DNA from: Octopus vulgaris | Taxonomy: Eukaryota | Length of the DNA stretch: 64,000 nucleotides | Direction of reading: 5' to 3' | Assembly (NCBI GenBank): GCA_951406725.2 | Contig: OX597827.1 | Span: 55,800,001 to 55,864,000 of the forward strand | Part shown: positions 12,800-64,000 of the stretch, in pieces | Numbering within the stretch: the first letter of the stretch is position 1 | Layout: each line of letters starts with the position of its first letter | Made by a program: the position numbers and the translations under genes | The notes under the pieces: generated by a model | The model's database searches: none | What the model saw: the letters and a program-made list of their open reading frames with translations, nothing else | Told to the model about the DNA's origin: nothing

Positions 12800-13745
12800 T
12801 TGCTGTAAGACTGTCTTCATATGTATAAATTGGTCTAATTTACTTAAGCCCTTTGTAATGTTGGGATTATAAGTAGAGACTGGATGCTGTCATTGATGAA
12901 ATCCCTACATAGGATTGAAACTAGGCCAGTTGAAATGTCTTTTTTGTTCATGAAGATACTACATATGAAGACGAGTTAAGATTTGTCTCTTATATAGTGT
13001 TGGCTAAAACTGATATTCTCTGAAGTATATATCATCATTTAACATGTACTTTTCAGTCCTAGCATGGGTTGGATGGAATTTGTGGAGGTGGGTTCTCTAG
13101 AGCCAGATACCCTACTGTCACCAACCCTCACCTATTTCCAAGCATGTTCCCTTATCTGTTCCCTTTGGCCAGATATATTTTCACAGAAGAGAGGAAATGA
13201 AGGGAACTGCTTACATAGCAGTGACATTTGTTTACAACTATCAGGGTAAGACACATACATACATATATATATATGATGGGCTTCTCTCAGTTTCTGTCAA
13301 CCAAATCCACTCACAAAGCTTTGGTCAGCCTGGGACTGTAATCAAAGACATTTGCCAAAGATGCTATGCAGTGGGATTGAACCTGAGACCATGTGGTTGG
13401 GAAAAAAACTTCTTGCCATACAGCCACATAATAACATTGAAACAAAACACTAATAGTGCACCAGTAATTTACTAACCAAGCCATCTGCCAAGAATGTATT
13501 ATATAAATTGGTCTATCTAATTTACTTAAGCCTTTAATGGTAATAGGTTTATAAGAAATGTCTGTGAGAACAGTTAAAGAGAATACTCAGCCACTCATGA
13601 AATCCTAACACAGTACTGAAAATAGCCTAACTGAAACCATTTTTTGCTTTTCTGTCTACAAAGATATTGTTTATGAAGACATGGCATTTACATTTGTTTA
13701 TGACATGTAGTTTGGTTAAAACCTATAAATATGTTCTACAGTACA
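12800..13745 (+). repeat. Old tandem duplication (about 12800-13015 vs 13490-13745) separated by SINE insertions
   Basis: Shared blocks tataaattggtcta, taatttacttaagcc, atgaaatcc, tatgaagac, ttgg(c/t)taaaac. Confidence 0.6.
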
Positions 13746-14046
13746 AAATAGTATTGGAGTAAAACACTATTAATGCACCAGCACTAAATAACTAAAATTG
13801 GTAATGATGCATTCCAGAAATAGCTGTATCCTCTTATTAGACTGAGTGCATTTTATGACACAGGTGGAGGGCAACAGTACACTAATGTTACTTATTTTGT
13901 CAGCCTTGAGAAATACGAGAGGCATGATTTTTCATTAAGAACTAAAAACCAACAAACAGCAAGGCTTGCCTCTTCACCTTCCCAATTTTAATATTTGAGA
14001 CACAAGGAGACACAAAAAACACATACGCACACATATATAAATATAT

Positions 14047-14435
14047 ATAAGAAAATGAGATGACAAAAGGAATAAATGATTATCTTATGAACTTCATTAG
14101 TATACAGTTGTTTCTGGTACAAGATGCAGTGAACGCATAGTTGAGTGCCCAAGTAACATCTTATAGCTTCATCAGAGCCTCAAATATGAGGTGTCCAATA
14201 CGAGGCTCCAATGAAGTTATTAGGTGTTATTCATGCACTCAACTACGAGTCCACTGCATCTTATAGCAGAAACAGCTGTAAGCTAATGAAGTTCATAAGA
14301 TAATCATTTATTCCTTTGTCATCTCATTTTCTTATTACCACTTTGTACTCAACTAATGCCTTGTTCTGAAGCAAATGTATATTGAGTTCTACATCAGGTT
14401 ATTGATCTTGCAATGCCAAAGTAAAATATCAAATA
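14047..14435. mobile_element. Fold-back Penelope-like/retrozyme-type element with two inverted hammerhead copies
   Basis: Imperfect inverted arms of about 135 bp (14047-14181 / 14202-14335) next to (TA)n. Consensus of the arms is ggct CTGATGA a gctataagatg...catcttatagc a GAAA cagctg TA agc. Confidence 0.7.
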
Positions 14436-17400
14436 CATATATCATCATCATTTAACATCTGTTGACCATACTGGCACAGGTTGGATGGTTTGACTAGGCT
14501 GGCATCCTGGAAGGCTGCCCCAGGATCCAGTCTGATTTGGCATGGTTTTCTATGGCTGGATGCCCTTCCTAACACCAACCAGAGTGTAATGGGTGTTTTT
14601 ACATGCCACCAGCACAGGTACCATTTGTGTGACACCAGTATCTGCCGTGACTGCAATTTTACTCAGCTTGATGGGTCTTCTTCTCAAGCACAATATAATG
14701 CCAAAGATCTTGGTCATTGCCTCTGTGAGGCCCAACACTCAAAAGGAGCTCGGCTACTTTGCTTCCATAAGGTTCCAAAGGTACTCAGCTACTTTGCCTC
14801 TGTGAGGCCCAACATGACAAGCTCTTTCAGTTTGAGTACTAAAACCACAAGGTCTTGCTTTGCCTGAGGCTATAATAGAAGACACTTGCTCAAGATGTCA
14901 CACAGCAGGACCGAAACTAAGTGGTTGATAAGTGAACTTCTTAACACAGTCACAAAATGAAGTATTGGGGGAAAAAAATCTATAGTAATATATGACTGAG
15001 GTATTCTGTGATTTATTGGATTTAAATGAGTCTTGAGTCGTCTAATTTTTGGGTGGAATGTATTATGAAAAGAATTGGTGGTTTCTTTTGATATGAAGAG
15101 GAGATATAGGTAATTAAAGTGACCCAGTATATTGCTGGTAATTATTTTGTCACAGGATATATATCAATGTGATTGACATAGATGTGTCAGCCACTAAAGA
15201 AAGAACTTCTAAATGTTTGCTCCACTTGCTAGAAGCAGTAAACAAATGAAATCTCTGATATACAAAAAGATGGGATTGAAACAACTGGAATGTTTTCAAT
15301 CACAGGTTTGCTCAGTTAGAGATGACCTGGGGCTAAACAGCACTACAACAATGTGATTGGCATTCATTCAATCAATCATAAATAATATAAATCATTCAGT
15401 TTAATTTAAAAAAAAAAAGAGGTGTGCCTACATATTGTTGTGTGTTTATGTTGTGACATACCAATTACAAACAGCTATGAGAAGATATTTGCATATTTCT
15501 GAAGAAATACTCTTTTTACTCTTTTACTTGTTTCAGTCATTTGACTGTGGCCATGCTGGAGCACTGCCTATAGTCGAGCAAATCAACCCCAGGACTTATT
15601 CTTTGCAAGCCTAGTACTTATTCTATCTGTCTCTTTTGTCAAACCACTAATTTATGGGGATGTAAACACACCAACATCGGTTGTCAAGCGATGTTGGGGG
15701 GACAGAAACACAAACAAACAAATGTAAAAAAGAAATGTAAATCAGAAAGAGAAATTAATAAAGGCAGCAATAATAATAATAATAATAATAATAATAATAA
15801 TCCTGTTTACTAAAGGCACAAAGCCTGAAATTTGTGGGTAGGGGACTCACCCCAGTGTTTCACTGGTGCTTAATTTATCGACCTCAAAAGGCTGAAAGGA
15901 AAGGTCAACTTTGGTGGAATTTGAACTCAGAATGTAGCAACTGACAAAATACCACTAAGCATTTCACCCAGTGTGCTAACAATTCTGCTATCTTGCCACC
16001 ACCACCACCACAATAATAATAATAATAATAATAATAATAATAATCTTTTCTACTGGAGTCACAAAGCCTCAAATCTGTGAGGAGGGGACTAGTCGGATAC
16101 ACTGACACCAGTGTTTCACAGGTACTTAATTTATTGACCGTGAAAGGATTGAAAGGTAAAGTCAACCACGGCAGAATTTGAACTCAAAATGTAAGGGAGG
16201 ATGAAATGCTGTTAAGCATTTTGCCCAGCGTGCTAACAATTCTGCCAGCTCGCTGCCTTAAATAATAATAATAATAATAATAATAATAATAATCCCTGCA
16301 AGAAGTGCAAAAGATTGTGTTAACTGGTACATCACACGTATTGAGAAGAGCATTGTCGATGTGAGAACTATTACTACCCATGTATTTTAATTTAACTTTA
16401 TTTCTATAAAAAAAAAAAAAAATGAACAAACTAGTGAGTTTAGTTTAATGGCCTACCAATGTATACTATGAGTTTCTTTGCCCTAGGAGTCGGGAAGACA
16501 CTCGGCAAGAAATGGAAGCAAATTTGAAAGAAGAAAAAAAAATAATAATAATTAATGAGAATTATAATAAATATAATTATATCGAAGAAAATTTTTTATT
16601 AATGAACAAATAGCCCATGTTAGGTGTGTATTATGTATGTATGTGTGTGTGTGAGTAAGCATCATGCAGGATTGTGTGTGTGTACGCACACACACTCATA
16701 CACAAGTTATAGTAAGATATGCAAGGCAAACGACACTTAATGACTTAATGATCGTTTGATTGTTGCAGCTGCTGTACAAGTAGCAACAATTCCTCAACAG
16801 CACAGGACCATACTTATTGTGAAGCTGTCTGATGCTGCTGCACTGCAGTGAAATAAGCAAACAAACAAATAAATGAATGAACACACACACACTCATACAC
16901 ACAGAGATAATACATACTCACACATACTTTGTAAATATGAACACAAACACATAAATAAATTTCTTAAGCACAGTTGAGTGGAAAGCAGGACATTAAAGTA
17001 GATAGTAATAGAAGCAAGCACACACACACACACACACATTAGATGACGCTGAAAGAAGCAGAGAATACCTGATTGTTTAAGAAACTACATTCAGATTCTC
17101 AAGGGCTCCGAAAGTGATCCATTACACCTTATACCCAAACAGTATATATAATATTTAAGAAGTAAAACTTCTGAGATAATTTAGCCATTTAAACCCTGTG
17201 AATTCGGCTAATGGGACCAACCACAAACTCCATAAAAATACAGGATTTATGTAGCTATTTTACATTTTTTTAATTACTCGTTTATAGCCATTGGAAGTTA
17301 TTTTCCTATTAACAACAAGCTAATATATAAAGGGTTTAAGGTAGCAACCTGGGCAAAATGCTTAGCAGTATTTCATCTGTCTTTACATTCTGAGTTCAAA

Positions 17401-63200: not shown

Positions 63201-63456
63201 CTTCCTCCTACAGGGACAAAGGCCTGAAATTTTGGGGGAGGGAGTTAGTTGATTACATTGACCCCAGTGCTCAACTGGTACTTATTTCATTGAGCCCAAA
63301 AGGATGAAAAGCAAAGTTGAGTTCAGCAGCAATTAAATTCAGAACATAAAAGATGGATGAAATGCCACTAAGTATCTTGTCTAATGTGCTAACAATCTTG
63401 CCAGCTCACTGCCTTGTCCCAGACAGAATACAATATCAAATATTAAAATTGAAGTA

Positions 63457-63664
63457 GAGATGCAGCATGGAATTTTTATCAGTGAACAGGTCTCGGTCAC
63501 AAAGTGATGAAAATATTTTGACAAATTAAATTTAAATGTTGAAGTGAATCTAATGGTTTTTGTGTGTTTCTTAAATGGTTTATAAACACCTTCCACGCTG
63601 CAATTGTTTTCGTTCCAGCACACGATCTCAGATCAGGTCACTTGCTATGCGAGTCCATCTCTGT
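63457..63664 (+). mobile_element. Short insertion with 11-bp target-site duplication and degenerate hammerhead-like fold
   Basis: aaattgaagta occurs at 63446-56 and 63665-75; short inverted ends agagatg/catctct; internal tttatca...gtcac-aaa-gtgat GAAA atat TT tgacaaa. Confidence 0.55.
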
Positions 63665-64000
63665 AAATTGAAGTACTTTTTCCTAAAACATTCTCAAATT
63701 CAGTAACATTCATTTTTGTGGCTTCATTAACACTGTTAGTAATTACATTAAGCTCATTAAAAGTTTCATGTTTAAATGTATATCATTTAAGAGCAAAAAA
63801 AAAAAAACTCTTTTTTTTTCATTCCTACAGTTTTGATCATAGGTGATTAAATAAATAGAAATAATGTTCAGTTATCAGTATACTCTTGTTTTTAAACTAA
63901 GTGATGCCATATCATCATCATCATCATCACCATAAATTTGAGGTATTTTTTACCACGATAGGACTGATCTACATTATACCATCTCTCTAAGTGTCATCTA

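Follow-up and report, generated by a model that had tools for sequence, protein, structure and literature searches.

The window analyzed here, 64,000 nt of contig OX597827.1 (positions 55,800,001-55,864,000) in the 2.8-Gb Octopus vulgaris assembly of about 30 chromosome-sized contigs, contains 10 insertions with type I hammerhead ribozyme anatomy, which belong to eight repeat families named A to H. These hammerhead-bearing sequences are very probably pseudo-long terminal repeats (pseudo-LTRs) of Penelope-like retrotransposons, with element ends copied in A, B, F, and H, a tandem derivative in D, and probably older ends in the other three families (C, E, and G). The observations behind this reading are the anatomy itself, the endonuclease frames upstream of A, B, F, and H, the reverse transcriptase (RT) and 5' pseudo-LTR of H, and the fixed 3' ends, inversions, targets, and target duplications of the insertions. 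The original prediction, made from the letters of the window alone, had called them a ribozyme-driven population of non-autonomous mini-retroelements linked to Penelope-like elements.

The presence of hammerhead motifs in the window, which has a G+C content of 35% and plentiful (TA)n tracts, is confirmed; every site cited in that prediction is present and hammerhead-shaped. A strict descriptor, in which Watson-Crick stems are required, gives two matches in the window, against 0.05 on average in 20 local dinucleotide shuffles. In a random genome sample of 60 evenly spaced 10-kb stretches, 600 kb in all, with five shuffles as control, it gives 17 matches against 1.2 (20 against 0.2 with a second setting). 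In the proposed comparison with shuffled controls, the motif frequency by this descriptor is well above background. Chance matches in AT-rich repeat DNA would find some comfort in a loose descriptor tolerating one core mismatch and 3-bp stems, which does no better than shuffles in the window (3 matches versus 1.75), in an Rfam scan with no hammerhead among the matches listed (150 of 230), only TA-hairpin microRNA noise, and in the weakness of E and G. However, the excess over shuffles is at least 14-fold, the motif lies at the same place in every element, and 3-8 pairing and palindromic stem III arise without being required, so that this explanation is refuted for A-D, F, and H and is on the whole practically negligible.

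In the family alignments, stem I leads into the core, in most cases a single unpaired base, stem II, GAAA, a short and mostly palindromic stem III, and UH, and the type I order of core positions 3-9, GAAA, UH, and stems I-III occurs above chance. As predicted, stem III is reduced to a palindrome: CAGCTG in C, CAATTG in D, CTAG in E, and ATAT in H. The majority cores are CTGACGA in B, CTGATGA in D and G, CCGACGA in A, CTGTAGA in F, GTGAACA in H, and CCGATGA, with CpG decay, in C. Minimum-energy folds recover stems I and II for H, B, and F, and fail to do so for the A and C examples. The predicted density of roughly one per 8 kb agrees with the window (10 per 64 kb). For the 600-kb sample, six families account for 25 insertions, or one per 24 kb, a lower bound because further hammerhead families exist; at least 25 distinct hammerhead sequence types were counted in 1.47 Mb. 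Genome searches filled all 40 scored candidates for each of A, B, C, D, F, and H, which makes these six abundant families.

The link to Penelope-like elements was examined in genomic loci retrieved for comparison (L-numbers below), and it stands: the hammerheads of A, B, F, and H lie at the ends of protein-coding elements, with GIY-YIG frames upstream of all four and RT for H, which are the autonomous relatives sharing these ends whose search had been proposed. The family H insertion (63457..63664, plus strand; about 208 bp) comprises the pseudo-LTR and its tail, has the core GTGAACA, with its swapped G3-C8 pair, at 63482, begins at a fixed 5' start, and is flanked by an 11-bp target-site duplication (63446..63456 on the left and 63665-63675 on the right, plus strand). 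Walking upstream of H reached both the GIY-YIG endonuclease and RT. Among 16 long H stretches, several have the order open reading frame (ORF), untranslated region (UTR), H, and L295 has the order H, tail, ORF, that is, a 5' H copy with a tail running into the ORF in the classic pseudo-LTR layout. RT and pseudo-LTRs at both ends are supported by L295, L299, L303, and L308, and a search with the H endonuclease for homologues returned nine proteins. The junction fold of H is clean, with a 7-bp stem I and a 5-bp stem II, and the fold of the whole element is no more stable than shuffles (z +1.1). H is probably a Nematis-type end-copy, the choice of Nematis over Neptune being a tentative one made on motif shape. 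Locus L182 contains a 426-bp tandem array that appears to be a satellite born from an insertion; each of its units, at least six in number, combines an H copy with unrelated flank and a piece of a short interspersed element (SINE).

Family F (20495..20712, minus strand) represents the 3' end of a Penelope-like element that would be, by its sequence motifs, Neptune-type; its core CTGTAGA, with an A6U change, is at 20615-20609, and it abuts (TA)16 at 20462-20494. Upstream of the F copy in L131 and of its sister in L241 there is a low-complexity UTR and then a CX4CxxC linker and GIY-YIG frame, the Zn-linker with GIY-YIG being seen in the sister L241 and the endonuclease end in the F copy L131. 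The Pfam GIY-YIG match of the F frame is weak (E 0.012; 1e-5 for L218, of another family), and only the C-terminal part of RT is found. The CX2-5CxxC linker and CCHH motif, which mark the Neptune and Nematis clades in the available text of PMC8557442, are present in L241 for F and in L263 and L260 for H. Within F, a long pyrimidine run at 20604-20640 (minus strand) ends in an AG inside the hammerhead core, like a 3' splice acceptor; this AG is created by the A6U change, and splicing there would exchange the ribozyme's 5' half for other sequence. More Penelope-like ORFs, from other families, lie at L218:5022-6182, L298:3193-4290, and L308:7595-8587, all on the minus strand, those of L218 and L298 each with its own downstream hammerhead.

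Families A and B would be, by their sequence motifs, short end-copies of Hydra-type Penelope-like elements. The A insertion (34116..34300, plus strand) is young, 97-99% identical to other copies, with core CCGACGA (U4C) at 34163, an inverted arm at 34116-34150, a tail of about 65 nt, and (TA)n at 34091-34115 and 34301-34332. Its endonuclease end lies about 1.2 kb upstream in L312, overlapping a UTR common to L312 and L314; it is 36% identical to an element with the CxCX5C linker and appears to fit the Hydra clade as described in PMC8557442. Of the two B copies, both on the plus strand, the one at 40516..40625 has an intact canonical hammerhead (core 40540) at the end of a putatively Hydra-type element, and the one at 40042..40247, adjoining a TA/TG tract, is truncated within stem II, keeps the 3' half only, and is inverted-duplicated with a tail. 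Endonuclease remnants were found upstream of B in 5 of 30 loci (tblastn E 2e-8 to 3e-4). The CxxC and CxH marks of the Hydra clade occur in L312 for A and in the remnants for B, and the CxCX5C linker solely in the relative L298; the upstream walks of A and B did not reach RT.

The insertions also carry the marks of Penelope-like integration, namely an optional tail, an inverted 5' copy, and a (TA)n or AT-rich target. The predicted preference for (TA)n holds, with tracts beside 5 of the 10 window insertions (those of A, F, and D, the B copy at 40042, and C, whose tract is short) and (TA)4 or longer adjoining 20 of the 25 sampled insertions versus 8% of random intervals. The same is true of the predicted fold-back with an inverted copy, since a clear inverted arm is present in 4 of 10 window insertions (A, C, D, and B at 40042) and in 8 of the 25 in the sample, where one locus had supplied a reference and two F matches in L222 may belong to a single insertion. 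In families A, C, D, and H the insertions terminate at two or three fixed 3' points, which define tails of about 55-100 nt, and target duplications of 8-14 bp are found at 8 of 30 H loci. A single (TA)n tract often holds a stack of different Penelope families (L003, L112, L135, L239, L264, and L298).

The 5' boundary is also fixed. In H, 34 of 37 arms begin no more than 6 nt from a single point some 24 nt ahead of the core, and in A, 39 of 44 begin no more than 8 nt from a point some 10-18 nt ahead of it, these counts being of arms and not of independent insertions, with one H row probably a spurious motif match, which lessens their weight. Head-to-head H pairs are spaced by 37-40 bp in 8 of 10 cases among the first 100 matches listed, with the fold-back at the fixed start. 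In H this start, whose sequence presumably resembles an initiator, is likely the transcription start. A candidate origin of H copies from spliced RNA, with one possible donor and the acceptor-like H boundary, gave a single uninspected match genome-wide and was discarded for lack of support.

According to PMC11167929 and PMC8557442, AT-rich DNA is the substrate that the GIY-YIG domain nicks, and RT initiates within the RNA at tail positions, an internal start that PMC11167929 demonstrated in vitro. Taken together with the fixed 5' start and the fold-back point, this internal start suggests that the mini-copies would be run-off products extending from the 5' tail to the 5' end of the RNA. RT would start at the tail of the 5' pseudo-LTR, and the complementary DNA (cDNA) would run off the RNA end just upstream of the ribozyme, producing many copies of 150-210 bp, with an occasional snap-back generating the inverted arm. 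If the template is usually uncut, as we infer, selection would maintain the ribozyme in master elements, where it probably serves RNA processing that depends on dimers, and the scattered copies would decay neutrally. The fuller proposal, in which tens of thousands of mini-copies are run-off leader cDNAs (from the internal RT start to the capped start) that provide an in vivo record of a mechanism seen only in vitro, together with a natural G3-C8 hammerhead in the most abundant family, H, that still cleaves and in which evolution has fixed the engineered rescue mutant, is put forward as a tentative one, somewhat short of an even chance.

Family D presents a different arrangement, and it is for D alone that the description as a non-autonomous element is shown to hold; longer copies of A, B, F, and H extend upstream as far as a GIY-YIG frame. 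The D insertion (36136..36630, plus strand) has (TA)n on both sides and an intact canonical hammerhead with its core at 36301, a stem I of 7 bp, and CAATTG as stem III; an inverted arm at 36136-36224 is followed by positions 353-491 and 1-273 of a 491-nt unit. All 31 D loci (30 plus one random copy) map to this single non-coding unit, with up to 1.9 units in tandem; its tail leads back to its own hammerhead, and there is no long frame. Most copies are sub-unit fragments with inversions, those longer than one unit being L096, L106, and L111, and in L106 two D hammerheads spaced by 491 nt, again with no long frame, give two consecutive non-coding units. By its sequence, D comes under the working definition of a non-LTR retrozyme in the available text of bioRxiv 10.64898/2026.07.22.740005, and, as a non-coding tandem derivative, it is likely moved by the enzymes of Penelope-like elements. 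The D unit junction found in four contig sets is one that genomic copies also have, and is uninformative on expression or circles.

Such head-to-tail non-coding units are absent from the examined loci of A, B, C, F, and H, the L182 array including unrelated flank. This bears on the possibility that most short copies are self-propagating non-autonomous elements, SINE-like or retrozyme-like, with an internal promoter and mobilized in trans. For D this is true, and the short H and A copies with fixed ends, the H target duplications, and the lack of a parent for C, E, and G would agree with it; moreover, if an internal promoter is located 3' of the start, as it is in the Penelope of D. virilis (PMC2377424, available text), the H and A mini-copies would include it. 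Nonetheless, A, B, F, and H run upstream into coding frames, and short and long H copies are intermixed on the tree. As only 6 of 79 branches of this tree are supported, it is too weak to settle the question against short copies amplifying by themselves, a point that counts for this alternative, which is considered unlikely as an account of most copies.

A survey of the core pair in 1.47 Mb of targeted plus random loci, with positions 3 and 8 unconstrained, found a Watson-Crick pair in all 13 multi-locus families (10 C-G, 2 U-A, and 1 G-C) and in 15 of 20 singletons. In the random sample alone the pair is present in 13 of 15 matches versus 9 of 24 in shuffles, and stem III is palindromic in 12 of 15, as against 5 of 24. 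As far as sequence comparison can tell, this pairing across families shows selection on the catalytic fold. The proposed check of core conservation within families failed for H, whose core columns vary as much as its flanks; copies therefore decay neutrally, and the within-family comparison is uninformative.

Selection on the fold, together with the D copies beyond one unit, as a circular or tandem template gives, could be taken to mean that the elements spread through ribozyme cleavage and circular RNA, with the ribozyme driving amplification. However, the 5' ends show no accumulation at the cleavage site (none of 8 randomly sampled H insertions begins there), most sampled copies having an uncut hammerhead and a start upstream of it, and copies with an unpaired core have spread. 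Also, mutation of the hammerhead left in vitro insertion normal and RNA ends at the cleavage site were not observed, according to the available text of PMC11167929, and several cores are changed (U4C, A6U) in ways expected to lower activity, PMC3088659 covering U4C and A6C in the text available. This explanation is accordingly held to be improbable, and the claim that the population is ribozyme-driven is not borne out.

Family H has the swapped core pair at high copy number, with 7,728 exact 18-mers of the G3-C8 form and 255 of the G3-G8 form genome-wide and no match genome-wide to a canonical-core version. An engineered C3G/G8C double mutant partly restores cleavage in Poseidon of Anolis (PMC11167929), and natural U3-A8 hammerheads are known (PMC3088659, PMC4209133), at least in the text available for these sources. 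By analogy, H is predicted to keep some cutting ability, and its activity may be low, as argued from the UUU cleavage triplet and the spread of G3-G8 copies. In the literature covered, which leaves out Lunse et al. 2017, Arkhipova et al. 2017, and supplements, only engineered mutants and natural U3-A8 were found and no natural G3-C8 core, so that H is possibly an unreported core variant. The G3-G8 form makes up 3% of exact matches genome-wide, and in the H tree 10 of 11 such copies are long or ORF-linked, many of them on contig C16; for those in L295, L298, L299, L306, and L307, local duplication or real enrichment may be the explanation. Polarizing G3-C8 against G3-G8 on this tree was tried and gave no clear order, G8 being scattered with at least two origins forced.

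Several results weigh against the reading of the motifs as Penelope ends, or against parts of it. Besides the loose descriptor, only 2 of the 10 window copies (36301 and 40540) pass the strict one, the other eight being decayed or variant. All recovered frames are broken or partial, with no intact full-length ORF in any family, and the Pfam scores of frames upstream of the window families are below the cut-off; the link of A to an endonuclease comes from a single locus, L312. The 255 unpaired G3-G8 copies, some of them ORF-linked, indicate that an intact core is not required for spread. Regarding the 5' boundary, an extra G precedes the H start in 9 of 18 copies, of which target duplication explains at least 3, and the fixed start in H and A also resembles a 3' splice site; in D. 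virilis an intron ends at helix I (PMC4209133, available text). Finally, parent elements were not reached for three families: about 260 bp walked upstream of C to a microsatellite contained no frame, and no parent ORF was found for E or G, which have too few copies.

These three families are nevertheless probably ends of older Penelope-like elements. The C insertion (14048..14434, plus strand) has an inverted arm at 14048-14189, with a core at 14175 on the minus strand, and a direct arm with a decayed core at 14208, as well as a long stem II, stem III CAGCTG, a 3' tail, and a short adjoining TA tract. The two E copies, about 66-70% alike and both on the plus strand, are an old one at 12801..13010 with a decayed minimal hammerhead (core 12893, stem III CTAG) and one at 13431..13722 with a decayed core at 13594. 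Family G (23150..23300, plus strand) is also old, with a canonical core at 23191 and decayed stems. Genome searches with E and G gave just four weak further copies each.

Regarding known systems, both the class and its two arrangements, Penelope ends and a non-coding tandem unit, are already known. An earlier study (Cervera and de la Pena 2014, PMC4209133) described minimal hammerheads that are massive in number, heterogeneous, and dispersed and that are tied to truncated Penelope-like elements, opposite-strand pairs among them, which answers the suggestion that the population might be undescribed. Shared with that account, in the text available, are thousands of dispersed single motifs, truncated elements, and opposite-strand pairs 100-700 bp apart, along with the unpaired base between 9 and 10.1, palindromic stem III, U3-A8 variants, and high family diversity. 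In contrast, its main text does not include molluscs and reports U3-A8 cores but, in the text available, none with G3-C8, U4C, or A6U, and stem II is very long in several of the families here. For Penelope-like elements, the bias toward (TA)n, the inversion, and the tail have been described (Craig et al. 2021, PMC8557442). In that paper's available text, the Hydra clade shares with our elements CxxC and CxH around conserved E and N (A and B), the CxCX5C linker (relative L298), canonical hammerheads, (TA)n insertion, the inverted 5' copy, and the tail, whereas tails there are of 30-40 bp and the likeness is one of motifs, not of an RT tree. Metazoan non-LTR retrozymes (PMC7761336 and the preprint above, available text) resemble D in that each non-coding unit of the tandem has a single type I hammerhead and the insertion marks are of the Penelope type, but their unit is of about 150-300 bp, a typical and not strict size (PMC7761336), versus 491 nt in D, which is known from genomic copies alone. 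With Poseidon of Anolis in vitro, an internal RT start that defines the tail and AT-rich targets are common features in the text of PMC11167929; the C3G/G8C exchange is engineered there, whereas here G3-C8 is natural, at high copy number, and in short copies sharing a fixed 5' end.

The main value of these results would be for annotation. The repeats of O. vulgaris have been reported to include 31 Penelope-like families with recent activity and about 900 SINE families, most of them unclassified (PMC13282606), in whose main text neither ribozyme nor hammerhead is mentioned, and the literature on hammerheads and octopus gave only PMC8557442 as relevant. Hammerhead Penelope ends may make up a sizeable share of probable unclassified SINE listings in such genomes, as 25 insertions of six families per 600 kb extrapolate to the order of 100,000 genome-wide. 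Moreover, for the in vivo role of the Penelope hammerhead, a natural allele series (C3-G8, U3-A8, G3-C8, G3-G8, U4C, and A6U) with countable copies would make the relation between cleavage rate and transposition success testable. The mechanism proposed for fixed-length copies is testable as well, and Penelope promoters could be mapped from the fixed 5' boundary with no need of RNA data.

Other features of the window were noted. An inverted repeat of 141 nt (46026-46166 and 46770-46910; 93% complementary) has no hammerhead match and resembles a DNA-transposon-derived piece around a SINE. A perfect hairpin around (TA)n at 45021-45108, made of a SINE end and a short inverted copy, is the source of the top Rfam microRNA false matches. 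On the minus strand, 28545-28725 and 27560-27650 are richer in G+C and have open frames with the look of host-gene exons, and some insertions may be intronic. Also on the minus strand, 12234-12309 has a tRNA-like head (Rfam 30.4 bits), and at 43107-43568 a common SINE occurs as a 174-bp tandem of 2.6 copies.

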